Shown here: piece after piece, positions 6,908 to 50,478 of the stretch | Layout: every line of letters starts with the position of its first letter | How positions within the stretch are numbered: position 1 is the first letter of the stretch | Source: Myxococcales bacterium | GTDB taxonomy: Bacteria > Myxococcota_A > Polyangia > Fen-1088 | DNA: 64,000 bases | NCBI GenBank assembly: GCA_003158735.1 | Contig: PMLB01000226.1 | Location: 687-64,686 of the forward strand | Direction of reading: 5' to 3' | Made by a program: the position numbers and the translations under genes | The notes under the pieces: model-generated | Database searches by the model: none | What the model saw: the letters and a program-made list of their open reading frames with translations, nothing else | Told to the model about the DNA's origin: nothing

Positions 6908-8385
6908 TGCGAAATCTAGTTGCCATTGTAGGCGTATTTGTGATTGCCGCCATCGCGGCCTGTGGTTACGACCCGCACCCCGAAAGTGGCGCCCTGCCAT
7001 GCACCTCGCATTGCCCGAACGGCTACGTGTGCACGAACAACTTCTGCTACCTCACGGGTACAGGTCCTGATGGCGGCCCATCCGCCGGCACGACTGGCGG
7101 CGCTGGCGCCGCCGGCACGGGTGGCATGGTCGGAAGCGATGCCGCTGCCGGCAGTGGCGGCACGGTCAGAAGTGATGCCGCCGCTGGCAGTGGCGGCACG
7201 GTCAGAAATGATGCCGCCGCTGGCAGTGGCGGCACGGTCGGAAGTGATGCCGCCGCTACACACGATGGCGCAGCTGACGTGGGGCTGGATGTTCCCTCTT
7301 CCATAGACTCCGATGGCGACGCGAGTCTGGCCGACAGCGAAGCGGGTGGCGCCGACGTGCTGGGCACCGGTGGCGCAACCGCAGGAGCCTTCAAGGCAAC
7401 CGGCAGCATGATCACGGGGAGGGACAATCACACAGCCACGTTGTTGCTCAACGGGAAGGTGCTCATCGCCGGCGGAAGCAATTTCGACACACCTCTCGCG
7501 ACCGCAGAGCTGTACGATCCCGCCACGGCGACCTTTTCGGGGACCGGCAAGATGGTCGCGGCAAGGTACGCCGCCACAGCGACCCTGCTGCAAGACGGAA
7601 GGGTTCTCGTGACCGGCGGATTCAGTGGCGAGGAGTACCTAGCGAGTGCGGAGCTGTACGACCCGGCGACCGCGAAATTCTCGGCCACCGGGGACATGGC
7701 GGCAGCAAGAAATTTCCACACGGCGACGCGGTTGCAGAATGGAAAGGTCTTCATCGCCGGCGGATTCGGTGGCAACCGTCTCGCGAGCGCGGAGCTCTAC
7801 GACCCAGCGACGGGAAAATTTACGACGGCCGGCTCCATGAAGGCGGTCAGGGTATCCCAGACTGCGACATTGTTGACCAACGGAAAGGTGCTCATCGCCG
7901 GCGGAATGAGCACCAAGGGTGCTGTCGCCAGTGCTGAGCTGTACGACCCGGCGAATGCGACATTTACGCCGACCGGTTCCCTAAAGGTGGCAAGGTACGC
8001 GCAGACGGCGACGCTGTTGCCGGGCGGGACGGTGCTCATGGTCGGCGGAGACGACCCCAATGATGCGCAACTTGCGAGCGCCGAAATCTACGATCCAACG
8101 GACGCATCGTTCACGGCAACTGGCAGCATTACCGGGGCGCGGGACAGCCACACCGCCACATTGTTGCCCAGCGGGGTCGTTCTGGTCGCTGGTGGATACA
8201 ACGGCTCGGCGCTCGGAAGCGCCAGGTTATACGACCCAACCTCTGGAACATTCACGGCCATCAGCGGCATGATCGACGAAAGGGAAGCCCACACCGCGAC
8301 CTTGCTGACGAATGGGGCGGTCCTCATGGCCGGCGGATTCGGCATGACCAACCAGGACCTCGCGAGCGCCGAGCTGTACCAATAG
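6907..8385 (+). CDS. Kelch-repeat beta-propeller lipoprotein (copy 2)
   Basis: Internal start [19 protein letters not shown] at a TGATG overlap. Same Kelch-type repeat as copy 1. The N-terminal stalk contains an in-frame 12-aa tandem repeat. Confidence 0.8.
   Translation: MRNLVAIVGVFVIAAIAACGYDPHPESGALPCTSHCPNGYVCTNNFCYLTGTGPDGGPSAGTTGGAGAAGTGGMVGSDAAAGSGGTVRSDAAAGSGGTVRNDAAAGSGGTVGSDAAATHDGAADVGLDVPSSIDSDGDASLADSEAGGADVLGTGGATAGAFKATGSMITGRDNHTATLLLNGKVLIAGGSNFDTPLATAELYDPATATFSGTGKMVAARYAATATLLQDGRVLVTGGFSGEEYLASAELYDPATAKFSATGDMAAARNFHTATRLQNGKVFIAGGFGGNRLASAELYDPATGKFTTAGSMKAVRVSQTATLLTNGKVLIAGGMSTKGAVASAELYDPANATFTPTGSLKVARYAQTATLLPGGTVLMVGGDDPNDAQLASAEIYDPTDASFTATGSITGARDSHTATLLPSGVVLVAGGYNGSALGSARLYDPTSGTFTAISGMIDEREAHTATLLTNGAVLMAGGFGMTNQDLASAELYQ
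7135..7257 (+). repeat. 36-bp in-frame tandem repeat, about 3.4 copies
   Basis: The unit AGTGATGCCGCCGCTGGCAGTGGCGGCACGGTCAGA is repeated head to tail. It encodes (S/N)DAAAGSGGTV(R/G) inside the stalk of the second Kelch lipoprotein. Confidence 0.8.
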
Positions 8386-8433
8386 CCGGACGGCTGCCGC
8401 CGCGAAGAGTGGGGCCTTTTCGCCCCGTGGCCA

Positions 8434-9285
8434 CTACAGCGATCCAAGAACGGCGCGCAACTCGGCAGCGTATCGGCCGTGCGGCGAAAGCCGCAGGTAG
8501 CGCTGGTAGGCGGCCTTGGCGGCTGCCCTGTGGCCGAAGGTTTGTTCGGCGCTGCCGAGAAAGACATAGGCATCGGCTCGGTTGGCGTCGAGTGCGATGG
8601 CCTTGGTCGCCCAATTGGAGGCGGGACCGGGGCGTCCGCGCTCGAACTCGGTCTTGGCCAGCATGACGGCGACATCCGCGGATGGCGGGCCACTGGCGAA
8701 CGCTTGTGCACACGCGGATACCACGTCCTTTGCCCGATGTTGCTCGTAGGCCTTCTGGCACGCGTCGAGGGCAGCGTCGTCAGCCGGGGCCGCAGCAGCC
8801 TTGGCCGCGGTTGGTGCAGGAGCAGGGGAATCGGTGAGGGCCGCAACCGCCCCGGCAGCGGCAGGTACAGGAGGAGGAGGAGGAGGGACGGGAAGATCCG
8901 CGGCCGGGGCTGCTGCGGGGATTAATGCGGGCGTCGGCGTCGTTTCTTGCCGGGACGCGGTCGGTTGGGGTAGCGACCGCGGCGCGTGGTCCGTGCGCGA
9001 AACAGCCAACGTGGCACACGCGGCGACCACGGCAGATAAGCCGAGCAGCGCCCAGTATGCGCGTCTGCGCAGCCAGGGGCGCGTTTTCCCGGCGGCAGAT
9101 GGCTCATCAAAGCTGTCGCCGGCGACTGGCGCAGCCGCCAAATCCTCCCCCGCTTGAAAGAAACTGGTTTCGACGGTGTCGAAGTGAGGAAGCTGTTCTA
9201 GGGGCAGGACCAGGACTTGGCACTTCAGTTCTCGGGGCGGCTGTGCGTTCTGAGGGTCGGCACGGCGCTCGGGTGCGCGGCTCAT
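8434..9285 (-). CDS. membrane-anchored TPR-like protein
   Basis: 283-aa ORF. It has one TM helix (YWALLGLSAVVAACATLAV), a Pro/Ala-rich linker and a C-terminal TPR-like region (ADAYVFLGSAEQTFGHRAAAKAAYQRYLRLSPHGRYAAELRAVL). Confidence 0.6.
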   Translation of the reverse strand: MSRAPERRADPQNAQPPRELKCQVLVLPLEQLPHFDTVETSFFQAGEDLAAAPVAGDSFDEPSAAGKTRPWLRRRAYWALLGLSAVVAACATLAVSRTDHAPRSLPQPTASRQETTPTPALIPAAAPAADLPVPPPPPPVPAAAGAVAALTDSPAPAPTAAKAAAAPADDAALDACQKAYEQHRAKDVVSACAQAFASGPPSADVAVMLAKTEFERGRPGPASNWATKAIALDANRADAYVFLGSAEQTFGHRAAAKAAYQRYLRLSPHGRYAAELRAVLGSL

Positions 9286-13208: not shown

Positions 13209-13937
13209 TCAGTGATTCCTCACTCGCAGTTGGCGTTTGTAGGCGTCCCGAATCGCCTTGCCAAGTCTGCTCGACACGACTTCGTACTTGTCAAAGTCGC
13301 GAATATTCTCCTGACGCAGATGGAGCTGGCCTTCGCCGGTGTTTCCGCGATGCTGGCCTTTTGAGTAGGCGCGGTGAGTCTTGAGCTCATGCGAGGACAG
13401 AATCCAATAGCGAATCCTGTCGCGCCAAACGGCAATCCACACGAAGACGTCACAGCAGGCTGGTTTCACCTGCTGAAAGTTCATCCAAAACGGTTGAGTG
13501 GACTCCGACGATAGCGCTTTGACATAGAGAGGTTCATCGCTGCTGGTGTCAACTGCGCGCGAGGCCTTCACCTCGATTCGAATTCGTCCGTCGAGTAGGA
13601 AGTCGTATTGCCCAGAGTAGTTGGGGTCGAATTTCTTGGACGGCTTGGACAGGTCCGGAACCAGTTCTTTCAGGTGCCCCTGCGCCCACGCTTCACCGAA
13701 GGTCCGAGGTGCACTGATCTCGAAGATGTAGAGAAACGCATTCCGTTCCAAGTAGCTGTCGCGCATCTCGTAGTACTGATCGAGCGACAGCACGTCGCGG
13801 CCAAGTAGTGTCGAGATGAGATACTCGAACTCATTGAATGGATAGACTGAATAGATCTCATCAATCCTTGCCCGAACGGCCTTGCCATCGGGCAGCTTGG
13901 CCACCAATTCGTCGAGCTGTTTCCGTAGCGTCTGCAT
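13209..13937 (-). CDS. putative Type II restriction endonuclease (PD-(D/E)xK-like)
   Basis: Internal start MQTLRKQL lies 4 nt after the methyltransferase stop; the ORF-track extension overlaps the MTase. Candidate catalytic signature is YDFLLDGRIRIEVKASR. AT-richer than the flanks. No family recognised beyond the motif. Confidence 0.5.
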   Translation of the reverse strand: MQTLRKQLDELVAKLPDGKAVRARIDEIYSVYPFNEFEYLISTLLGRDVLSLDQYYEMRDSYLERNAFLYIFEISAPRTFGEAWAQGHLKELVPDLSKPSKKFDPNYSGQYDFLLDGRIRIEVKASRAVDTSSDEPLYVKALSSESTQPFWMNFQQVKPACCDVFVWIAVWRDRIRYWILSSHELKTHRAYSKGQHRGNTGEGQLHLRQENIRDFDKYEVVSSRLGKAIRDAYKRQLRVRNH

Positions 13938-13941
13938 CTTC

Positions 13942-14934
13942 TCAGAATAGCGTTGGCTGGGTTGACCGATCCGCCGCCGTATCGGAAGGATGCGGTAGCA
14001 TACTGGCAGGAAGCTCCTTTTCAAACGCGTGGCCGTTCTGCCAGCCAGTCTTGCCGGACGTGCGAAAATGTTCGAGACGGCGAATAGCAATCTCGCAGTA
14101 GACCGGGTCGACGTCGGCCGTATAGCAACGGCGACCGGCGATCTCAGCCGCCAAGAGAGTGGTGCCGGAATGGGAGAAGAAGTCGACGACAAGATCCGCA
14201 GGGCGCGAACTTGCGCGGATAATGCGGTCGACGCTCTTCAGCGGTTTCTGAGCGTAGCAACCGGACACGTTCTCTTGGAGTCGATAGAAGACTTGCTGAA
14301 TATCAACCCAGACATTGCCAGCGCGGATCGTGTCGCGCTTGCCACGTTCCAGATTCTCGGTGCGCTCACCTCCAACGTCCTTGTAGTATCCACGAAGCGT
14401 TTTAGGGATGTCTGTGTACTCAGCTTCAATGTTGAATGCTGGGTTGCCACGGACGTAGTAGAGCAATTCCTGGCGTACGGCCATCCAGTTCTTCTGGGTT
14501 CCATATCCCCTTTGGTTCCGCACGGTGATGAAGCTTCGCGCCTGGATCGGAAATTCACGCATCAGGATCATGAACTCTGGGAGGGGCTGGAAGTGGTCTC
14601 GCTGGTCCGCTCCGAGCCAAACGTAGAGCGAACTGTCCGGCGCAAGGGCTCCCAGCGTGTTCGTAACCCAGCAGCGAGCCCACGCGATGTAGTCGCGGAC
14701 GCTCCGTGTCTCGAACGCCACGAGGTTGTAGGGCGGATCTTGGATCGCCAGGCTGGCAAGCTTGCGGTCCATGAGGGAAGACACCGCTGAAGCGTCGGCT
14801 GCATCAATGCATGCCACTCGGTGTCCGGATACTGAATCGGTCCACATGCCTCCAGGCTTGAGGCGACAAAGCGGAAGCAGTTTCGCCCGCACCTCCGGTT
14901 GCTCGTCAATTCTCGGCAAGGGGTTGTTGTGCAT
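13942..14934 (-). CDS. beta-class N6-adenine/N4-cytosine DNA methyltransferase
   Basis: Motif IV (IQDPPYN) lies near the N-terminus and motif I (VVDFFSHSGTTLLAAEIAGR) near the C-terminus. This is the permuted order of PF01555-type MTases. Confidence 0.85.
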   Translation of the reverse strand: MHNNPLPRIDEQPEVRAKLLPLCRLKPGGMWTDSVSGHRVACIDAADASAVSSLMDRKLASLAIQDPPYNLVAFETRSVRDYIAWARCWVTNTLGALAPDSSLYVWLGADQRDHFQPLPEFMILMREFPIQARSFITVRNQRGYGTQKNWMAVRQELLYYVRGNPAFNIEAEYTDIPKTLRGYYKDVGGERTENLERGKRDTIRAGNVWVDIQQVFYRLQENVSGCYAQKPLKSVDRIIRASSRPADLVVDFFSHSGTTLLAAEIAGRRCYTADVDPVYCEIAIRRLEHFRTSGKTGWQNGHAFEKELPASMLPHPSDTAADRSTQPTLF

Positions 14935-14954
14935 CGAGAGCCTTCATGACTGTC

Positions 14955-17270
14955 CTAACTGGCAAACTTGTCTTCCGCAACTCTAGATCTGCGCCGTCGA
15001 TCCAGCAGTACCATTGCCAGGCAAGCCAGCGCCGCCACCACGGACACCGCCAGCCCGGCAGCCAGCGCATCGTCGAAGTACTCGAATTCCACGCGATGCT
15101 GGCCCGGGGGCACCAGCACGCCAGACAGCGAGATGTCGGTGCGCACGACTGGCGCCAAGATTCCGTCCACGCGGGCACGCCAGCCCTGGTCCCAGGTCTG
15201 GTTCACCGCAATGAAAGAAGCCGCCGGCCCCGCAGCCTCGACCTCCAGCGCGAATTGCACGGGCGTGCGCGCGACCAGGCGCACGCGAGCGGGCGACGGC
15301 TGTTCGGGCAAGGCCAGCGACTGGCCGCCATCGACCAGGGCCACCTCCGGGATCTGGGAATCCAGCTCACGCACCGCCTGCAGCCAGCCATCTGGCCCGT
15401 CGACCACGCGAGTGCGGCGGATCGGAAAAACCAGGGGCTGGGGATTGCGGGTGATTTTTGCGTCGAGCGTGTAGGCGCCGGACGGCGACTTGATGTTCGC
15501 TTCCTCCGGGGAGGCCCCCGGGCGGAACTGGACCACGGCCGTCACTCCGCGTCGAGCGAGCACGGGAGCGGCCAGGCGGGGATCGGCCTCGAATGCCCTC
15601 CAGAACGCGGCCGTGGCTTCGGTGGTCCAGCGCAGTTGGGTGAGATCGAAGTCCCGCTCGTAGGTCATGGCCAGCCCCCACTCGACCGGGATGGGAGGTC
15701 GGGCGAGCCCGAGCGAGACATCGAAGCCAGGAGCCCAAGCCGCCATGTGAAAGATGACGTCGTCCTCTTTGCGCTGGACCAACGGCGTGAGAAAAGCCGG
15801 CGGCGTTGTCACCGATGCCACAGGTGTGGTCAGCAGCAAGCCACGGCCCACAGCGATCAGGTCGACCGCAAGCACCGCACACAGGGCAAGCGCGCGCCGC
15901 AGGCGCCCCAGGCGGCGTGCCAGCCACAGCGGCAGCAGCGAAGCCAGCGCCACCAGCGACACGCGCAAACAATCGCGCAGGGTCTGCCCCTCGGGGAAAT
16001 GGGCGGGCAAGTGTCTACGCGCAAGCCACACGGCACAGGCCGCGATCAGACCCAACACGACGAATTTCAGCAGCGCGCGTTTCATCCACAGGCGTGCGCG
16101 TGCCGGGCCCAACACCGCGTAGTCGAATCCATACGCTGCCAGCGTGACCAGGGAAAAGCAGAACAGCAGCGAGAACTTCTCGGGAAAACGAATCTGCGCG
16201 ACAAGAGGCAGTCTGCGCACCAGGTGCCAGACCGGAAAGTTGTGGCCCAGGGCCGTCACGAAGCCGAGCAGCGCGAGCGCGAGCCACGGCCACAAGAAAC
16301 GTCCGCGCACCACCAGCGCGAGGATCGCCAGCAGCGTGATCGCGAGACCCGGATAGAGCGAGTGGTAGAAGGGGAGCACGCGCGGGCTGTACAAGAAGCC
16401 GCCCCAGAACAGCTCCGGCTGGCCGGGAACCACGTGACCGAGCGGGTAGGGAGCGAACAGCTCGAAGGCCCGCCACGCCGGCATGGACCAAACGTCGGCC
16501 ATGGCTTCGGGCAGGCCCAAAGCTCGAACCGTCTTGCCCACGTGGTGCAAGCCAGGAATCAGGGTCACCGCCCCGAGCGCTAGGCCGAGCAGAAGGCTGG
16601 CCACCAGCGACGGAAGGGCGCGGCCAGCGACGTGCCTGCGCTCAGCCAGAATGGCGGCAAGGACCAGCAGCGGCATCATCAGCAGCGTGGAGGGCTCGCC
16701 AGTCAGGCATTGCGTCCCGACGACCAAGGCCAGTCCCACCGCATTCGTGCTTCCAGGCTTCCTTGCCAGGCGCACCGCGAAGCCCAGGGCCAGGGGAATG
16801 ACCGAGGCCGCGTGCAGGAAGGCCAGCTGGCAGGTGGTCGAGAGAAGGTAGCCGCCGCAACTCCACGACAACGAGCCCAGCAGCGAGGCCGGGCGGCTGC
16901 GGCGCAAGGTGCGTAGGAACCAGTACATGCCCACGGCCGCGACCAGCAGGGGTACGATGACCTGCAGCCGGAACGCCCACTCGAACGGCAGCAAGAAGAA
17001 CAGCGTGGTGAGCGGGTGAAATACCTCGTACGCGGGATTGCCGGCGAATGGCTGTCCCGAGGCGAAGAAGGGATTCCACAAAGGAAGGCCGCCCGAGGCC
17101 CGGGCCAGCGGCACGATCAGCGATCGGGTGGGGCGGTAGTAGGAAGCCAGGTCAACGTCGAAGAAGGTCTCGCCCACGAAGATCGCCCGCCAGAACAGCG
17201 CCAGTACGCAGCAGGCTGCCAGCGGCAACGCGACCACCCAGAAATGAGGCTGTCTTCGGCCGAAACTCAA
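14955..17270 (-). CDS. YfhO-family polytopic membrane protein (glycosyl-transfer-associated)
   Basis: 771 aa. The N-terminus FFDVDLASYYRPTRSLIVPLARASGGLPLWNPFFASGQPFAGNPAYEVFHP matches the YfhO signature. It has many TM helices and a large C-terminal extracytoplasmic domain followed by a final TM. Confidence 0.7.
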   Translation of the reverse strand: MSFGRRQPHFWVVALPLAACCVLALFWRAIFVGETFFDVDLASYYRPTRSLIVPLARASGGLPLWNPFFASGQPFAGNPAYEVFHPLTTLFFLLPFEWAFRLQVIVPLLVAAVGMYWFLRTLRRSRPASLLGSLSWSCGGYLLSTTCQLAFLHAASVIPLALGFAVRLARKPGSTNAVGLALVVGTQCLTGEPSTLLMMPLLVLAAILAERRHVAGRALPSLVASLLLGLALGAVTLIPGLHHVGKTVRALGLPEAMADVWSMPAWRAFELFAPYPLGHVVPGQPELFWGGFLYSPRVLPFYHSLYPGLAITLLAILALVVRGRFLWPWLALALLGFVTALGHNFPVWHLVRRLPLVAQIRFPEKFSLLFCFSLVTLAAYGFDYAVLGPARARLWMKRALLKFVVLGLIAACAVWLARRHLPAHFPEGQTLRDCLRVSLVALASLLPLWLARRLGRLRRALALCAVLAVDLIAVGRGLLLTTPVASVTTPPAFLTPLVQRKEDDVIFHMAAWAPGFDVSLGLARPPIPVEWGLAMTYERDFDLTQLRWTTEATAAFWRAFEADPRLAAPVLARRGVTAVVQFRPGASPEEANIKSPSGAYTLDAKITRNPQPLVFPIRRTRVVDGPDGWLQAVRELDSQIPEVALVDGGQSLALPEQPSPARVRLVARTPVQFALEVEAAGPAASFIAVNQTWDQGWRARVDGILAPVVRTDISLSGVLVPPGQHRVEFEYFDDALAAGLAVSVVAALACLAMVLLDRRRRSRVAEDKFAS

Positions 17271-43099: not shown

Positions 43100-43307
43100 A
43101 CCGAAAGCCTGGCGACGGCGATTGGTGCGCTATCACGGTGCGCCACTAGCATTGATAGCCCTACTATACCAGTCGGGTTAGCGCGAAATGTCTTGCGCAA
43201 TTGCTAGGGAATTGCTACTCGCAAAGGGCCACTATCTCGCTCGGGATAGAGTAACTTGGTAATGAAACTCCGCCATCGTCATCTCTGATCGACAAGGAGC
43301 TAAGACC

Positions 43308-46271
43308 ATGAGGGTAGGCGCTGCACTCGGATATCTGACACTCGCCGCGGCGGTTCTTGCGGCGGCATGTACTGGCGACAATGGCAAGGCGGGCCAGGCA
43401 GGAACCTCCTGCACTGTCACCACCTATGCTGACGGGACCGAGACGATCAGGTGTGGTGCCGACGGCGGAATTGCCACGGTGTCGAACGGCAAGTCGTGCA
43501 CCGTCACGGAGGTCGATGGCGGCACCCAGATTGAGTGCGAAGATGGCACCTCGTCGTTCGTGGCCAGCGGGGCGGACGGGACCAACGGCACCAACGGAGC
43601 GCCAGGCCAGTCCTGCAACGTCGTGAGCAATGGCGACGGAACCCGGACCGTAACCTGCCCGGCTGGCGATGGCGGCACGGTCACGTTCAACGTCAAAGAC
43701 GCCCTGGTCAGCTTCGCTACCATGAGCGCCGACAGCAAGGCCGCGCTTGACCTTCAGATCACTGTCACCAGCGTCACCGTCCCCGCCAGTGGCCAGCCCG
43801 TGGTTGCCTTCAGGGTCACTGACGGCAGTGGCAATGTAGTGACGAAGTTGCCTCCGGCTGACATGCGTTTTGCGCTGCTCAAGCTGGTTCCCGCCACCAC
43901 CAAGGTGGCCGCCAACCTTGCGCTTGTCGGAGTGAATGGCAGCGCCAACGACACCTGGGTCAGCTACATGGCGGCCAATGCCACCAGCACCGCCGGAACG
44001 GAGTCCGCGGCCACTGCAACTGCCACCGGCGGCACGCTCACCGACAACGGCGATGGAACCTATTCCTACGCCTTCCTCAAGAAGGTCACCGATCCAGTCA
44101 ACGCGGGGACCACCTACGATCCGGCCGCCACGCACCGCCTGACCATGATTGTGTCCGAGTCGGGCAACCCGTTTGCCCCGGTTAACGTGGTCAAGGACTT
44201 CATTCCCGCCACGGGCAAGGACGTCACCGGTCAGGCCGAGAACACCGACGGCGCTTCCTGCCTCGAGTGCCACAGCTCGTTCCGCGCCAAGGCTGGCGGG
44301 ACCGGTGCCTTCCACGGCGGAGCTCGCTACGACCTGCGCATCTGTGTGACCTGCCACAACGATCAGCGGCGCTTCACCGCGATCCCGGGAACCGCGACCA
44401 CCCCGGCGGTTGACCTGGACGGGGCCGGTGTGGTGGACGCCACAACCGGCGCATGGGCGGGCAATGCCGTCAAGGTGAACGGCGAGGCGTACATCAACCT
44501 GCCGGTCTTCGTTCACAAGATCCACATGGGTGACCAGCTCACGCTCAACGGCGGCCAGTACACGGCCATGGCAACCCCCTACGATGTAACTTTTCCGCAG
44601 GACGCGGGCAACTGCGCCAAGTGCCACCGCGGCGTGGCCCAGGCCAACAACTTCCAGAACAAGCCCAGCCGACGCGCCTGTGGCGCCTGTCACGATGACA
44701 TCAGCTTCCTGGCAGCGGCGGCGGTGCCTGCCAAGCGCAAGGCGCACGATGGCGGCCCGATGGCGGACGACTCGAATTGCACGCTTTGCCACCCGCCGAC
44801 TGGACCTGCGACCAAGGCGGGAGTCAGCGTGGTCGATGCCCACATGACTGTCGCAGCGCCTGACCCGCTGGCCACCTGGCTGGGCGGCAGCAACGCCAAC
44901 ACCAACGCTGGCTATGTCCCGGCCGCGGGCTTCACGCCGACCGGAGAGGCCGCGCTCAGCTACTTCGTGAAGAGCGTCACCCGTGATGCCAACAGCAATC
45001 CCAGCATCGTGTTCCGCTTCCTCCTCAACGGCACCACGCCGGTGGTGTTCAATGACCCAAGCGCGGCGACAGAAATCATGGACGGCTTCGTGGGATCGCC
45101 CAGCGTGTACTTCGTGTTTGCCGTGCCCCAGGATAGCATCACGGCGCCGGCTGACTTCAACGCCAGTGCCAGTGGCTATATCAAGACCATCTGGAACGGG
45201 ACCGCGACGGGCACGGGTGCTGGGACCATGACCTTCGACGCGACCACCGGCTTTTACACCATCACGCTCACTGGTGTGACTGTCCCCGACAACGCGACCA
45301 TGCTGACCGGTGGGGTCGGATACACCTACAGCCTGGGCAGTGCCCCGCCGCTCACTCAGATCAACTTGCCGGCCTTCCCGTACGGCGACTCCACAGTCAT
45401 CAAGGGCTGCATTGTCGGCCAGAAGTGCGGCGGTCTTGTTCTGCCGACTCCCGACGTCTCGGCGGTGGCGACCGATGCGGCCAGCGGCAAGGCCTACGCC
45501 GCCCGACGCCTGATCGTCAAGAATTCCAACTGCAACGCTTGCCACGCGCAGTTGGGCGTCAATCCGACCTTCCACTCTGGTCAGCGCAACGATGCGCCGA
45601 CCTGCGCCTTCTGCCATAAGCCGAACCTGACCGACGGCGGCTGGTCCGTCAGTTCGTCGACGTTCATTCACAGCATTCACGGGGCTTCCGAACGGACCGT
45701 GGGCTTCAACTGGGAGGCGGCCTGCCCGACCGGGACCACCTATCCGACCACCTGTACGACCGCCAATGCCGATCCGTACTTCGCCAACGTGACCTACCCG
45801 GGCATCCTCAACAACTGCGAGCAGTGCCACCTTCCCGGCACCTACGACTTCAGCGCCGCGGCGTCGGCTTCTGCGGTTTCCAATCTGCTGATGTCCACAG
45901 TGGCCGCGGGCGTGATCAAGCCGAACATTTCCACCTCGCCCTATGTGAAGACCGACGGCACTGATTACGGGAATGTGTTCGCAACGGCCAATGTGACCAG
46001 CGGAACCCTTGGTACCACCGCTTGCACGAGCACAGCTCCTTGCGTGTGTTCGCCCACGGCGCCCTGTGTGGCCGCTGCCACGACCCTGGTGAAGTCGCCC
46101 ATCGCTGCCGCCTGTTCTTCGTGCCACGATGCCCCCACCGCGATCTCGCACATGCAGATGATGGGCGGATCGTTCTACGAGACGCGCGCCGTGGCCCAGA
46201 CCAAGGCCGAGCAGTGCCTGATGTGCCATGGTCCCGGCACCGTGGCAGCCATCGCCCTGGTCCATCAGTAG
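43308..46271 (+). CDS. decahaem c-type cytochrome lipoprotein (MtrC/OmcA-family-like)
   Basis: AAGGAG RBS. Lipobox LAAAC. There are ten CxxCH motifs: CLECH, CVTCH, CAKCH, CGACH, CTLCH, CNACH, CAFCH, CEQCH, CSSCH and CLMCH. 987 aa. Confidence 0.85.
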   Translation: MRVGAALGYLTLAAAVLAAACTGDNGKAGQAGTSCTVTTYADGTETIRCGADGGIATVSNGKSCTVTEVDGGTQIECEDGTSSFVASGADGTNGTNGAPGQSCNVVSNGDGTRTVTCPAGDGGTVTFNVKDALVSFATMSADSKAALDLQITVTSVTVPASGQPVVAFRVTDGSGNVVTKLPPADMRFALLKLVPATTKVAANLALVGVNGSANDTWVSYMAANATSTAGTESAATATATGGTLTDNGDGTYSYAFLKKVTDPVNAGTTYDPAATHRLTMIVSESGNPFAPVNVVKDFIPATGKDVTGQAENTDGASCLECHSSFRAKAGGTGAFHGGARYDLRICVTCHNDQRRFTAIPGTATTPAVDLDGAGVVDATTGAWAGNAVKVNGEAYINLPVFVHKIHMGDQLTLNGGQYTAMATPYDVTFPQDAGNCAKCHRGVAQANNFQNKPSRRACGACHDDISFLAAAAVPAKRKAHDGGPMADDSNCTLCHPPTGPATKAGVSVVDAHMTVAAPDPLATWLGGSNANTNAGYVPAAGFTPTGEAALSYFVKSVTRDANSNPSIVFRFLLNGTTPVVFNDPSAATEIMDGFVGSPSVYFVFAVPQDSITAPADFNASASGYIKTIWNGTATGTGAGTMTFDATTGFYTITLTGVTVPDNATMLTGGVGYTYSLGSAPPLTQINLPAFPYGDSTVIKGCIVGQKCGGLVLPTPDVSAVATDAASGKAYAARRLIVKNSNCNACHAQLGVNPTFHSGQRNDAPTCAFCHKPNLTDGGWSVSSSTFIHSIHGASERTVGFNWEAACPTGTTYPTTCTTANADPYFANVTYPGILNNCEQCHLPGTYDFSAAASASAVSNLLMSTVAAGVIKPNISTSPYVKTDGTDYGNVFATANVTSGTLGTTACTSTAPCVCSPTAPCVAAATTLVKSPIAAACSSCHDAPTAISHMQMMGGSFYETRAVAQTKAEQCLMCHGPGTVAAIALVHQ

Positions 46272-46421
46272 GCCAGCCAGTCACACTAGCGGCAGTCCGG
46301 TTTGCGTCGCTATCGCAGCCGCCGCCGTGCGATCCAGACGAGCGCCACAAACGCGCCGAAGACAAGCGTGGCGCATCTATCCAGCACAATGGACATAATA
46401 TGATAGTATTGGTCCATCACG

Positions 46422-47783
46422 ATGGACATAACCCCGATATTGCACGACCAGAACCGCTGGTGGTCGAACCCCCACCATAGGGAAACCCTGCGGGTTAGGC
46501 GTCGAAGGCAGGCCTTCAGCCGGATTCTTGAGTACCTGGGGGATCTCCACGGTGGCCGCGCGGCGGCGCTGCTAGGGCCTCGCCAGGTGGGCAAGACCAC
46601 GCTTCTTCTGCAACTAGTCGACGACCTTCTGGGGCGGGGCTGGTCAGCCGGCAATATCACGTTCTTCGACTTCTCCGACGAGCGGCTGGTTTCCGCCGTG
46701 TCACCGCGGGAGGTCGTCACGGTTCGTCCGGTGGGATTGTCCGCGGACCAGCCTCGCGCCTTCTTCTTTGACGAGATTCAAAATGCCCTCGGCTGGCAGA
46801 AGTGGCTCAAGGGCGCGGTCGACGAGTCACGGCGAGCCGCTGGGCCTGGGTCGCGCTTCATCGTAACCGGCTCGGCCGCGACATCGCTACGCCAAGGCGG
46901 CGTCGAGTCGGGTCAGGGTCGCTGGGACGCGATCCCCATCGAAGGTCTCACCCTGGCTGAGTTTCTCAGACTCGGATCGCTGCGGGACGAAGACGCGGTG
47001 CCAACCACCGTCAGCGATCCCCAGGCGTTCGAGCGGTACTTGGAGGTGGGCGGCTTTCCAGAACACATCCAGGCCATGGTGCCGGTCCGCGAGGCTCGTC
47101 AGAGAATTCGCGAGGACATCTCCGACAGAGCCATCCTTCGGGATCTGCGCCAGACGGGCGTGGACATCGAGCGCATTCGTCGGCTGTTCGTCTACCTGAT
47201 CAACGGCTCAGGCAACGCCTGGAACCAGGCAAAACGTGCCGACGATCTGGAAGCCAATCGGAAATCAGTGGCCGACTGGCTTTCGGTGCTGGAAGGGACC
47301 CGTCTGATTGCCAGGCTCGACCGGGATCGCCCTGTCCGAGCCAAAGCGCACACGCAACTTCGCGCCCAGCCCAAGATCTTCGCCAGCGACCACGGGCTCA
47401 TCACTGCCTTCGCGTCGGCCCCCGAACCGCTTGGGGTTGCCGATATCCGCGCGCGCGTGTTCGAGGCGGCGGTGTTCCGTCATTTGCGGGAGGTGGCCCG
47501 GTCCGAACATGGAGTGCTCAGCTTCGGCCGCCTGGACGAGGATCTCGAGATCGACTTTGTCGTCCGCTATTCCGGCCATGCCGTAGGCATTGAAGTCACG
47601 TCCAGCATTGATGCAAAGCCTCGCAAGCTGGCGCGGGCGGGACAGGCCATGAGCAAGCTGGGCATCGACCGAAAAGTTCTCGTCCATGGTGGCCTCGTGT
47701 CCCATGCAACCGGCGACATCAAGATCGTTCCCTTGCACGAGTTCCTGCTGGCACCAGAACGATACGCGGGCGGTGAAGCATGA
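46422..47783 (+). CDS. AAA ATPase (AAA_14/DUF4143-type) with C-terminal PD-(D/E)xK-like nuclease signature
   Basis: Walker A is LLGPRQVGKTT and Walker B is AFFFDEIQ. A DUF4143-like middle region follows. C-terminus EDLEIDFVVRYSGHAVGIEVTSS. Confidence 0.8.
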   Translation: MDITPILHDQNRWWSNPHHRETLRVRRRRQAFSRILEYLGDLHGGRAAALLGPRQVGKTTLLLQLVDDLLGRGWSAGNITFFDFSDERLVSAVSPREVVTVRPVGLSADQPRAFFFDEIQNALGWQKWLKGAVDESRRAAGPGSRFIVTGSAATSLRQGGVESGQGRWDAIPIEGLTLAEFLRLGSLRDEDAVPTTVSDPQAFERYLEVGGFPEHIQAMVPVREARQRIREDISDRAILRDLRQTGVDIERIRRLFVYLINGSGNAWNQAKRADDLEANRKSVADWLSVLEGTRLIARLDRDRPVRAKAHTQLRAQPKIFASDHGLITAFASAPEPLGVADIRARVFEAAVFRHLREVARSEHGVLSFGRLDEDLEIDFVVRYSGHAVGIEVTSSIDAKPRKLARAGQAMSKLGIDRKVLVHGGLVSHATGDIKIVPLHEFLLAPERYAGGEA

Positions 47784-48958
47784 GTGGTTTCGATCCGAAG
47801 AGCTTGCTGGGGAAGGACGAGAACGATCGCCGCGAATTCAAGGAGGCGGAGGCACTGCGAAGGCCTGCGAACATCGGTAGGGAAGTCGTGGGTTTTCTGA
47901 ATGCCGGTGGGGGCGACATCTGGATCGGGGTCGAAGAGAAGGAGGGCAGAGCGGTCGGATTCCAACAAATCGCCGACATCGATCGATCTCTGATCTCGCT
48001 GCGGGACCACCTGATCGAAACCGTCGAGCCACAGCATCAGACGGATGAGGTCAAGCTCGATGCCAAGGGCGGATTGATTCACGTGACCGTCGAAAAGGGA
48101 AAGAATCCTCCGTACGCCCAACGGGACGGTGGCCGACGCTTTTGGATCCGCATTGGTGCTCGACTGCGGGAGATGTCGCGCGAGGAGATTGGCAGGAAAT
48201 TTGCCGAGGCCCTCAAGGCTCATTCGACAAGAGAAGACCGCGTGGCCGAGATCGCGGAGAAGCTACGGAAGGATCAAGCCAGCGTCGCACTCGAAAAACC
48301 CCAGCTCTGGCTCCGGCTCGTGCCGACTGAGTCGCTGGACATCGACTTCAACGACGAGCAGAACAAGCAGCAGTTTCGGACCTGGCTAACCGACCCGAGT
48401 GCAACCGGTAACCGTCGTTCGGGGTGGGACTTCGTTCACGACATGGCGCCACGCTTTCTTGGCGATCAGGTCAGGCACGGAAACGACGATGACTACATGA
48501 GGACTCAGATCACGGAACAGGGTCAGATAACTTTCAGGGTCCACAGCGATAGCCTGCGGCAGCTCGTTGGAGCCGTCTCCAGTTTCGCGCCGTACGCGCT
48601 GGTCGAGTACCCGGTGTCAGTCTTTCGTCTGATGGCCGCGATCCTTGGGCGCCATGCTGAGGCGCATGCAAACCTGCAGGTGGTCGCCGGTCTCGTCATC
48701 AGCGGCATTCGAGGCTGGTCGCTGTCGCCAGGCTCGCCGCGAGAGCCAGCTCGATTGTCGGAGGGACCAAAGACGTTCGAGAATGACGTGCTGGAGATCG
48801 ATCCCGAGCGGCTCGTGTTCGCAGCCAACGATCTGAAAGAGAACCCTGACCGCTGCGGGCTGCGCGTCGCTCGCCTGATCTATGGAAGATTTGGCTTTGA
48901 AAGCGGAGCAATCCCACCTGAATTCGACCAGCAACAGGGACGTTTGCTTCTGGGATGA
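47780..48958 (+). CDS. AlbA_2 (Schlafen-like divergent-AAA nucleic-acid-binding) domain protein with unknown about 250-aa C-terminal region
   Basis: ATGA overlap with the ATPase gene. N-terminal signatures DENDRREFKEAE, VVGFLNAGGGDIWIGVEEKEGRAVGF and PPYAQRDGGRRFWIRIGARLREMSREEI. Confidence 0.7.
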   Translation: MSGFDPKSLLGKDENDRREFKEAEALRRPANIGREVVGFLNAGGGDIWIGVEEKEGRAVGFQQIADIDRSLISLRDHLIETVEPQHQTDEVKLDAKGGLIHVTVEKGKNPPYAQRDGGRRFWIRIGARLREMSREEIGRKFAEALKAHSTREDRVAEIAEKLRKDQASVALEKPQLWLRLVPTESLDIDFNDEQNKQQFRTWLTDPSATGNRRSGWDFVHDMAPRFLGDQVRHGNDDDYMRTQITEQGQITFRVHSDSLRQLVGAVSSFAPYALVEYPVSVFRLMAAILGRHAEAHANLQVVAGLVISGIRGWSLSPGSPREPARLSEGPKTFENDVLEIDPERLVFAANDLKENPDRCGLRVARLIYGRFGFESGAIPPEFDQQQGRLLLG

Positions 48959-49077
48959 ACTGTCCTTCAATGACCTCGCCCAGTCGGTCCATCAGAAAAC
49001 TGAGGGACTCGTCAGCTAACCACGCGGTATCAGCGGAACAGTCGGTTGGCGCGACCCTTGCTAGACTCAACCTAGCC

Positions 49078-50478
49078 ATGCGCAAAGGCTTCTACGCTGC
49101 TTTGGTACTATCCCTTTCGGCCTGCGGCGGCCGGCATCCTCTGCAGCCCGGTTCCGGACGAGCTGGCGATGCGGCTGCAAGCGATGTTCAACTCGCTTCC
49201 TACGGCGACGCGGCCACCGACACCGGCCTGGACACGCGCCATTGCACTTTCATGGGGTTCGCACCAGCCGTGAGCTACCCGACCACCCACGAACCGATGT
49301 CCATCCTCGCCGTCGATCGTACAGGCAACGGACATCTCGACCTCGTGGTTAGCGAGCGCGGTGACAACAAGGCGACGTCCGAGTTCCTGGCAAATGCGGG
49401 CAACGGCACGTTCGCACTGTCGGCATCGTACGGTGTCAGCAGCAACAATCTCGGCAGCCTGGTGGCCGCCGACTTCAACGGCGACGGCAAGATCGATCTC
49501 GCGAGCCAAGTGGACAGCTTCTACGGGATCGACGTCGGAACCGGCAACGGCGTGCTCGCGATCGACTTCGGGGCCGGCAACGGCCCGTTCGCTTCGCAGG
49601 TGGTCACGTACTCCAGTCCCCAATCCTACGGTTACCTTACGGTGGGCGACTTCAATGGCGACGGCCACCCCGACCTCGCATTTGCAGGCTACGACTACGT
49701 CATGGCTGGCGGCTATATCACCCCAGACGGCCTCATCGCTTTGCCCGCGCCCGAGCCGACCGATTTCGCGTTGAACGTGTTTTTCAACGCGGGCGACGGC
49801 ACCCTCGCGGCGCCCGTGATCTATGCGAATCCGAATGGGTTTGAAGACATCGCGAGCGGCGACTTCGACGGTGACGGCCACCTCGATATCGCGGAACTCA
49901 GCACCTCAGGGAGCGCTGGCGGGATTGGCGTCTTCTTCAACGCGGGCGACGGCACCCTACGCAGCGAAGTCACCTACGTCGCGAGCCCCGACTGGATCGC
50001 CTACGGCCTTGCCGTCGCTGACTTCAATGGCGATGGCAAAGACGATGTCGCAACCACGACCATCCTGAACCCCAACGCGGCCAGCGAAGCCACCGTCCTG
50101 CAGGTGTTTACCGGCGCGAGCAATGGCAGCCTCAACGGGCCGGTCAGCTATCCCATCGCCAACATCCCAAGCGTGTATCAGATTGTCACCGGCGACTTCA
50201 ATGGCGACGGCAAACCCGACCTCGCGATGGTGATCGGGCACACCTCGCAGGGCGCGCTGGTCGACCCCGTGCCCGTGGCGGTGTTTGAGAACCTCGGCGA
50301 CGGAACGTTCGGCGCACCGGTGACCTACGGCGTGGCTGGCGGGGCTATGGACTACGGGACGTCCATTGCAGCGGGCGATTTCAATGGTGACGGCGTGACT
50401 GACATCGCGGTGACGACGAGCAGTGAGGATCCCCCGTATCCTGTGGCCGTGAACGTGCTGCTGTCGAAGTGCGAGTAG
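49078..50478 (+). CDS. FG-GAP/VCBS-repeat beta-propeller lipoprotein
   Basis: Internal start MRKGFYAALVLSLSAC (lipobox). Repeats include ADFNGDGKIDLA, GDFNGDGHPDLA, GDFDGDGHLDIA, ADFNGDGKDDVA, GDFNGDGKPDLA and GDFNGDGVTDIA. Confidence 0.8.
   Translation: MRKGFYAALVLSLSACGGRHPLQPGSGRAGDAAASDVQLASYGDAATDTGLDTRHCTFMGFAPAVSYPTTHEPMSILAVDRTGNGHLDLVVSERGDNKATSEFLANAGNGTFALSASYGVSSNNLGSLVAADFNGDGKIDLASQVDSFYGIDVGTGNGVLAIDFGAGNGPFASQVVTYSSPQSYGYLTVGDFNGDGHPDLAFAGYDYVMAGGYITPDGLIALPAPEPTDFALNVFFNAGDGTLAAPVIYANPNGFEDIASGDFDGDGHLDIAELSTSGSAGGIGVFFNAGDGTLRSEVTYVASPDWIAYGLAVADFNGDGKDDVATTTILNPNAASEATVLQVFTGASNGSLNGPVSYPIANIPSVYQIVTGDFNGDGKPDLAMVIGHTSQGALVDPVPVAVFENLGDGTFGAPVTYGVAGGAMDYGTSIAAGDFNGDGVTDIAVTTSSEDPPYPVAVNVLLSKCE

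Follow-up and report, generated by a model that had tools for sequence, protein, structure and literature searches.

An ATPase-Schlafen gene pair with exchanged Schlafen alleles, a candidate two-part antiviral module of soil and peat bacteria

Bacterial Schlafens are anti-phage tRNases that are fused to variable sensor domains (PMC13056530, Perez Taboada et al., Nat Microbiol 2026). Among these prokaryotic Schlafens (pSlfns), RorSlfn5 carries an Ig-like sensor and EcoSlfn7 a DUF262 domain, and 69.6% of pSlfns are encoded ≤10 kb from known defence genes (PMC13056530). The Ex4(E/D)xK motif is essential in SLFN11, RorSlfn5 and CbCash (PMC13056530; PMC13462974). PDC-S01, in which an ATPase and a PD-(D/E)xK domain are fused, is very common and unvalidated (PMC12988326). 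ATPases of this type, which have no assigned function, reportedly rank fourth in abundance among the candidate defence genes of prokaryotes. For nuclease-NTPase systems, complex formation has been reported as a general feature (bioRxiv 10.1101/2025.07.10.664194). Here, we analysed 64,000 nucleotides from a Myxococcales bacterium (the window; positions 687 to 64,686 of the forward strand of contig PMLB01000226.1, GenBank assembly GCA_003158735.1), in which a gene for a PDC-S01-type ATPase (gene 1) overlaps a downstream gene for a Schlafen protein (gene 2). By its closest relatives, the window belongs to an uncultured Myxococcota/Polyangia bacterium of peat or fen metagenomes. The two genes have been catalogued separately, and as a pair they probably represent a new, two-component form of antiviral system. 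The pair had been singled out from the letters of the window as a candidate uncharacterised defence system (hereafter the original prediction). This description holds for the pairing, which is undescribed, but not for the parts, as gene 1 can already be called as PDC-S01 and pSlfns are published anti-phage tRNases. In the literature searched, we found no description of an obligate AAA_14/DUF4143-Schlafen pairing.

Gene 1 (46422-47783, 453 aa) and gene 2 (47780-48958, 392 aa) share a 4-bp ATGA stop/start overlap at 47780-47783, just as the original prediction had placed and measured them; all coordinates without a locus name are those of the window, and the features of the pair and its leader lie on the plus strand. 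A word-indexed protein search gave 59 relatives of gene 2 at cluster level, and scans of genome and metagenome contigs gave 116 loci, 55 of them non-redundant. Where a locus had enough upstream DNA (about 100 of 116), gene 2 was, essentially without exception, directly preceded by a co-directional gene 1 homologue, and the great majority of loci had the exact 4-bp overlap. This arrangement as overlapping neighbours holds in several phyla; by record title, the hosts include Myxococcota, Thermoanaerobaculia and other Acidobacteriota, Planctomycetota, Ca. Xenobia, Bdellovibrionales and others. When the search was begun from gene 1 homologues instead, the pair was present in two of three sampled long contigs and gene 2 had been lost in the third. 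No consistent third gene was found downstream of gene 2 across the loci. Both genes are under purifying selection: the ratio of nonsynonymous to synonymous divergence (dN/dS) was 0.08-0.14 in gene 1, and in gene 2 it was 0.25-0.27. Some loci have decayed: gene 1 is cut to its C-terminal 180 aa beside an intact gene 2 in L121 and L122 (L121: 9453-9992), an intact gene 1 stands without gene 2 in L127 (8001-9404), and a gene 2 homologue without the N-terminal Ex4ExK segment stands without gene 1 in L010 and L054 (L010: 7593-9116). Such decayed and partial copies suggest that the module is dispensable. Together, these data identify gene 1 and gene 2 as an obligate, translationally coupled pair, which has its own conserved leader.

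Comparison of alleles showed that the two genes differ in how they diverge. Across loci, protein distances of gene 1 and gene 2 were correlated (r 0.76; 0/999 permutations reached the observed value), and pairs of loci whose gene 1 proteins were only 4-9% different had gene 2 proteins that were 20-60% different. For two syntenic loci of Thermoanaerobaculia (L068 and L022), DNA identity was 85-90% over the flanks and gene 1, dropped to ∼50% from about residue 60 of gene 2 to ∼800 nt beyond the end of the gene, and then recovered. A sharp drop within gene 2 was likewise seen between L023 and L024. The first ∼60 residues of gene 2, which include the catalytic motif, were 86-93% identical between the swapped alleles. 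Overall, identity between divergent alleles (L068 versus L022 and L096; L023 versus L024; gene 2 at ∼8001-9200) went down to ∼40%, and beyond residue 60 it was 16-46% per block, compared with 85-99% for gene 1 and the flanks. The hypervariable part of gene 2 consists of residues ∼60-135 of AlbA_2, the linker and the C-terminal domain. The window itself and locus L073 were 91-99% identical over the 3′ end of the upstream cytochrome gene and gene 1 and 69-81% identical over gene 2 (47851-48900). As synonymous divergence (dS) in this comparison was 0.80 in gene 2 but 0.17 in gene 1 and 0.19-0.25 in the flanks, it points to replacement of the allele rather than to faster local evolution. Thus, recombination exchanges gene 2 alleles next to a gene 1 that remains constant.

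The N-terminal part of gene 2 is of Schlafen type, as originally predicted: residues 14-132 (47819-48175) matched SLFN_AlbA_2 (PF04326) in Pfam over profile positions 1-117/118 (E 1.8e-14, 54.7 bits; cut-off 25.3). The domain opens with the Schlafen catalytic motif E14-x4-E19-x-K21 (ENDRREFK; 47819-47842), and E14, E19 and K21 were invariant in 67/67 distinct sequences. In a profile search, ExxxxE of SLFN12 aligned with E14 and E19; this marginal match was the only one of gene 2 among solved structures. The AlphaFold model of gene 2 had a predicted local distance difference test score (pLDDT) of 91, and its N-terminal domain retrieved SLFN12, SLFN5, SLFN11, SLFN13, the SAMD9 tRNase domain and DIP2311 in Foldseek (probability 1.0, E 2e-5 to 1e-3). 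A long linker helix is predicted by DSSP on the model at residues 134-167 (48179-48280).

For the remaining ∼250 aa of gene 2, in which no family had been recognized before, Pfam also found none. PADLOC had no match for gene 2, and NCBIfam profiles gave no significant match for either gene. A WCX domain appeared below the cut-off and in only 1 of 22 family members, and was therefore taken as a chance match. Modelled in isolation, the C-terminal 225-aa domain (48281-48955) is predicted with confidence (pLDDT 91.9, predicted template-modelling score (pTM) 0.91) and appears weakly TBP-like by its model and Foldseek matches. Foldseek returned no match for this domain in the PDB at E ≤ 0.001; TBP folds recurred among its weak PDB matches (probability 0.1-0.33, template-modelling (TM) score 0.2-0.3), and in BFVD it was matched by giant-virus TBP-like proteins (best E 4.2e-4, TM 0.29). 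As the pSlfn classification lists 'TBP-like' fusions, which make up 1.5% of pSlfns (PMC13056530), gene 2 may belong to this class, the fold match being weak. We also considered the domain as a degenerate second AlbA_2 lobe, which had no sequence support (hhalign probability of 2.3% between the N- and C-terminal profiles). An exhaustive profile search found the C-terminal domain in 631 clusters (50% identity). In the 150 best-matching clusters, full-length proteins were ∼380-410 aa long with the domain at ∼170-390, and shorter matches looked partial. With one layout shared by these full-length proteins, the architecture of gene 2 is fixed and its family very diverse.

Gene 1 encodes an AAA_14/DUF4143 P-loop ATPase (COG1373) with a C-terminal PD-(D/E)xK-like domain. 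Both Pfam families that had been read from its sequence matched well above their curated cut-offs, AAA_14 at residues 46-182 (E 1.6e-23, 83.6 bits; cut-off 27) and, C-terminal to it, DUF4143 at residues 243-394 (E 9.5e-20, 71.4 bits; cut-off 28.1). In PADLOC, the PDC-S01 model PDLC04787 aligned with residues 31-444 over profile positions 16-408/412 (E 2.5e-45), six more PDC-S01 models matched, and mad8 matched weakly (E 1e-4). A sequence search of solved structures with gene 1 gave no useful match. Walker A (GPRQVGKTT, residues 52-60; 46575-46601) and Walker B (FFFDEIQ, residues 114-120 with D117 and E118; 46761-46781) are present as described and were kept in 76 relatives; Walker A was also kept in stand-alone plasmid homologues, and the DE of Walker B also in outgroups. 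The nuclease-like signature noted at the end of gene 1 (EIDFVV...GIEVTSS; E376-I-D378 ... E391-V-T393, 47547-47600) is there as well. Within it, D378 was found in 76/76 relatives and E391 in 75/76, and the position of the canonical E-x-K lysine was threonine (T393) in 71/76 and lysine in 2/76. A further lysine, K402, was present in 72/76 relatives and might be a candidate replacement for the canonical one.

We also examined ten stand-alone DUF4143 ATPases from plasmids (L130-L139). Eight of the ten carried E[VI]K and had no evident partner, and two carried QVT. Both QVT homologues (Moraxella L132, 2438-4869; Sulfurimonas L133, 2489-5705) were followed by a co-directional Fic-family gene (Fic/DUF4172), a putative effector. 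Judged from these ten homologues, this suggests that ATPases of this class without the lysine work with a separate effector, possibly as a general rule. That lysine loss is exclusive to paired ATPases was only weakly supported, the comparison sample being the same ten plasmid homologues.

These motifs bear on which of the two proteins would execute the response. In one alternative, the roles are reversed: gene 2 would be a nucleic-acid sensor or specificity subunit built from AlbA_2 and TBP-like binders, and gene 1 the executing ATP-dependent DNA nuclease. The invariant D378, the nearly invariant E391 and K402 as a stand-in for the missing lysine would fit such a role, as would the description of PDC-S01 as an ATPase-PD-(D/E)xK fusion (PMC12988326), and hypervariability of gene 2 suits a specificity subunit. 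However, most paired ATPases have threonine where most stand-alone homologues keep the catalytic lysine, and an invariant Schlafen triad would be unexpected in a pure binding module. We regard reversed roles as unlikely.

We compared the leader of the pair, which precedes gene 1, across 34 non-redundant loci of several phyla (the window and 33 others, for example L014, L024, L079 and L086; 70 nt). It contains two copies of an operator-like palindrome. Motif A (46380-46392) has the consensus taCATtggAATGc at -42 to -30 and reads TCCAGCACAATGG in the window; an exact CATnnnnATG at -40 was present in 21/34 loci. Motif B (46413-46424; consensus CATtgcGATG) overlaps the ribosome-binding region and the start codon of gene 1, and in 28/34 loci a second CATnnnnATG had its CAT at -7 and its ATG as the start codon. 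The spacing from motif A to motif B was constant at 33 nt, and an AGG occurred near -12. In the window, a 19-nt direct repeat (46380-46398 and 46413-46431) takes in motif A. Between the two motifs lies an extended -10-like element, TGATAGTAT (46401-46409), as the putative promoter of the pair; TGnTAnnnT was found between -29 and -17 in 24/34 loci. As a strict sigma-70 scan of the leader gave no full promoter, this promoter is an inference only. An RNA hairpin between motifs A and B that would occlude the start codon appears less likely, as the central bases, judged by eye, are non-complementary.

The CATnnnnATG palindromes may be autoregulatory operators. Stand-alone plasmid DUF4143 genes of Rhodobacterales and Rhizobiales (L131, L134, L137, L138 and L139) are preceded by an inverted repeat, CCTTGCA ... 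TGCAAGG, located near -40 and -9, and several of these genes adjoin repABC replication genes or recombinase genes. Because this repeat is positionally analogous, the ATPase protein is the likely binder of the leader motifs.

The leader also clarifies the repeat that had been read as bracketing the pair. The 9-bp sequence GGTCCATCA, originally taken as a possible insertion mark, occurs in the window not twice but three times (46259, 46411 and 48986). The copy at 46411 lies mostly in motif B, inside a ∼45-nt leader that is kept with the pair in L002 and L041 despite different upstream flanks, and the copy at 48986 is absent from L073 and L002. Because the upstream copy is conserved as part of the leader and the downstream copy is missing from these relatives, and given the third copy, we rejected GGTCCATCA as a target-site duplication. 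The pair had also been described as more AT-rich than its flanks. This is true of gene 2 only, whose GC content of 0.594 is at the 9.5th percentile of 1.2-kb windows, whereas that of gene 1 (0.634) equals the window mean.

An operon of this layout could also serve addiction or stress responses in the manner of a toxin-antitoxin system, without a dedicated antiviral role, with gene 2 as an RNase toxin and gene 1 as a large, DNA-binding, ATP-dependent and autorepressing antitoxin or regulator. The 4-bp overlap of an upstream regulator gene with the RNase gene behind it would fit such a module, as would two palindromes that, like type II toxin-antitoxin operators, span the promoter region and the start codon; the pair also stands in isolated, non-island contexts, and small MqsA-like or UPF0175 open reading frames (ORFs) sometimes adjoin it. 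Nonetheless, the ATPase, with its 453 aa and conserved Walker motifs, is atypical as a labile antitoxin, the intact gene 1 of L127 persists without the presumed toxin and the truncated gene 2 of L010 without gene 1, and hypervariability of gene 2 alleles points to an external, changing target. We consider this explanation rather improbable, and as the border between toxin-antitoxin and abortive-infection systems is blurred, it overlaps with the one we prefer.

In our preferred reading, held with moderate confidence, the pair would be a self-contained, horizontally spread and locally stable module that acts by abortive infection or against mobile elements, with gene 2 as a Schlafen effector under the control of the gene 1 ATPase. 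It draws support from the fixed pairing and overlap, the invariant triad and Schlafen-like fold of gene 2, the precedent of bacterial Schlafens in phage defence, the PDC-S01 match of gene 1, purifying selection, hypervariability of gene 2, the decayed copies, the conserved leader and the loss of the nuclease lysine. The mechanism is proposed by analogy with RorSlfn5, Cash (CRISPR-associated Schlafen-Csx15), nuclease-NTPase operons and PARIS. Gene 2 would be a Schlafen-type endoribonuclease, probably cutting tRNA like the characterized bacterial and human Schlafens, and recognition of either a phage-derived trigger or an RNA substrate would be set by the variable stretch that runs from about residue 60 to the end of the TBP-like domain. 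Gene 1, a P-loop ATPase with a putative DNA-binding region and a nuclease-like domain without the canonical catalytic lysine, would form a complex with gene 2 and either keep it inactive or license it in an ATP-dependent manner, like the ATPase of PARIS and other nuclease-NTPase systems. It would probably also repress the operon through the two palindromic sites. A wider and more tentative generalization, which we think less probable than not by some way, is that PDC-S01-type ATPases might be, rather than nucleases acting alone, DNA-binding, ATP-driven control subunits that can lose the nuclease lysine and adopt exchangeable effectors, here a Schlafen tRNase that is swapped after its catalytic motif.

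Several observations weigh against the preferred reading. Defence genes, whose possible enrichment around the pair the original prediction had asked to have checked, gave no island signal when ∼394 neighbour ORFs from the 55 non-redundant loci (±8 kb) were scanned with PADLOC and Pfam; these ORFs belong mostly to housekeeping families, and the scan compares near with far neighbours rather than with a genome-wide control. PADLOC matches were few, and no more frequent beside the pair (248 ORFs within three genes) than 4-8 kb away (146 ORFs of ≥110 aa past the third gene, to ∼8 kb). No phage homologue was found, the PHROGs search giving only a generic AlbA_2-containing 'DNA helicase' family, and no full-length homologue was found on plasmids, where matches covered only the AlbA_2 part of unrelated proteins. 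In the window's genus, the pair always follows the cytochrome gene. In Thermoanaerobaculia (L123, L127, L128, L129 and many of L014-L032), it occupies a fixed slot, in the order Lactamase_B, pair, DUF1499 and MbtH/thioesterase/ACPS, and in both groups it is apparently vertically inherited. The only assay of a PDC-S01 representative that we found in the literature showed no protection against T4, T5 or T7 (bioRxiv 10.1101/2024.09.26.614923). Moreover, which protein senses and which executes is an inferred assignment. The missing defence-island signal and the negative phage assay call for particular caution.

Such stable synteny would also fit a housekeeping role in nucleic-acid processing, for example quality control or repair of tRNA or rRNA, inherited vertically in some soil lineages, and so would the housekeeping genes around the pair and purifying selection on both of its genes. 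However, the pair was present in only 39/185,579 species-representative genomes, every one a metagenome-assembled genome (MAG), scattered across unrelated phyla. It also occurs in decayed and partial copies, recombination replaces its gene 2 alleles between a gene 1 and flanks that do not change, and both families are otherwise tied to conflict systems, which together make a housekeeping function very unlikely. Overall, the neighbour, synteny, phage and plasmid results show the pair as a rare, laterally spread and locally stable chromosomal module, not a typical defence-island gene.

Among the PADLOC matches in the neighbourhood were two SduA-like proteins per set, one IetA, one PglX (L018), one PDC-S27, a PDC-S01 paralogue (L086) and some MADS-like proteins. 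Matches to SspA and DndA are probably cross-matches from PLP-dependent enzymes, and in those to PD-T4-6 the aligned part is the kinase domain of large Ser/Thr-kinase-like proteins. Locus L018 (a Ca. Xenobia MAG), one of the few with a clear defence neighbour, encodes a full-length BREX PglX-like methyltransferase (13402-17073, minus strand) ∼4 kb downstream of the pair. Directly after gene 2, we observed, in a few loci of Thermoanaerobaculia, a small convergent MqsA-like zinc-ribbon ORF in L015 (9242-9463) and L096 (9189-9416), and a UPF0175 ORF in L129 (10478-10696).

In the window, the pair stands between two unrelated genes, as the original prediction had it, and no tRNA gene, integrase or longer direct or inverted repeat was found flanking it. 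Upstream lies a gene for an MtrC/OmcA-like multihaem cytochrome (43308-46271, plus strand, 987 aa); a 1016-aa antisense ORF that shadows it (43215-46265, minus strand) is a typical high-GC artefact and no gene. Downstream, an FG-GAP lipoprotein gene (48955-50478, a 507-aa ORF) overlaps the stop codon of gene 2 with its ATG in a further ATGA. An alternative start of this gene lies at 49078, where a lipoprotein-like signal (MRKGFYAALVLSLSACGG) begins, and gene callers disagree on its length (507 versus 466 aa). L073 lacks the whole FG-GAP gene, the spacing suggests that L043 does too, and unrelated sequence takes its place in L041; as it is missing or replaced in these close relatives, the region downstream of gene 2 is variable. 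The window neighbours also include rml genes.

If the wider generalization is true, the pair would be an immune locus fixed in the chromosome, in which one unchanging 'engine' serves many alleles for recognition, and would offer a handle on the function of PDC-S01. As Schlafens are newly established as antiviral tRNases and PDC-S01 is widespread but functionally blank, a conserved operon would give both a testable mechanism, control of a Schlafen nuclease by an ATPase partner, and a constant ATPase beside a recombining Schlafen gene would exemplify allelic diversification at a bacterial immune locus. The hosts (Myxococcota, Thermoanaerobaculia and Planctomycetota of soils and peat) are hardly covered in studies of defence systems. 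If the pair is toxin-antitoxin-like or housekeeping instead, it would be a warning not to take a PDC-S01 call by PADLOC or an AlbA_2 domain automatically as a sign of defence.

Several known systems resemble the pair in part. Like type II toxin-antitoxin operons, it places a putative regulator gene in front of a putative RNase gene with a 4-bp overlap, and palindromes lie on the putative promoter and the start codon; unlike in these operons, the upstream protein is a P-loop ATPase of 453 aa and not a small labile antitoxin. With PARIS (AriA ATPase and AriB Toprim nuclease), Gabija and Hachiman, it shares the form of a two-gene NTPase-nuclease operon. In PARIS, the released AriB nuclease cleaves host tRNA. 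Nevertheless, there is no sequence kinship to PARIS, Gabija, Septu or Hachiman (no PADLOC match to AriA/B or GajA/B), and both the class of the ATPase and the fold of the nuclease differ. Cash (PMC13462974) has an N-terminal catalytic triad comparable to that of gene 2 (E17/D22/K24 in CbCash versus E14/E19/K21), and in Cash, as in SLFN-pAgo fusions (bioRxiv 10.64898/2026.05.29.728809), a Schlafen tRNase is placed under a separate sensing module, which for the pair is proposed from sequence. However, Cash is activated by cA4 via the fused Csx15 and tied to type III CRISPR, SLFN-pAgo is guided by nucleic acids, and the pair has neither type of partner.

The closest likenesses are those of the single parts. 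Gene 1 resembles PDC-S01 in its full-length profile match and in its layout of an ATPase with a PD-(D/E)xK-like domain. PDC-S01 was defined as a single-gene candidate, whereas gene 1 is always paired except in decayed loci and has threonine in place of the nuclease lysine. Gene 2 resembles pSlfns in its AlbA_2/Schlafen domain, its Ex4(E/D)xK motif and a fused non-nuclease domain, the presumed sensor. Unlike most pSlfns, its family is mostly not found near defence genes, yet 30.4% of pSlfns share that lack. The tested pSlfns are single proteins, and the text of PMC13056530 names no ATPase partner (the terms 'ATPase', 'AAA' and 'operon' have 0 occurrences), whereas gene 2 is coupled obligately to an AAA_14/DUF4143 ATPase encoded directly upstream.

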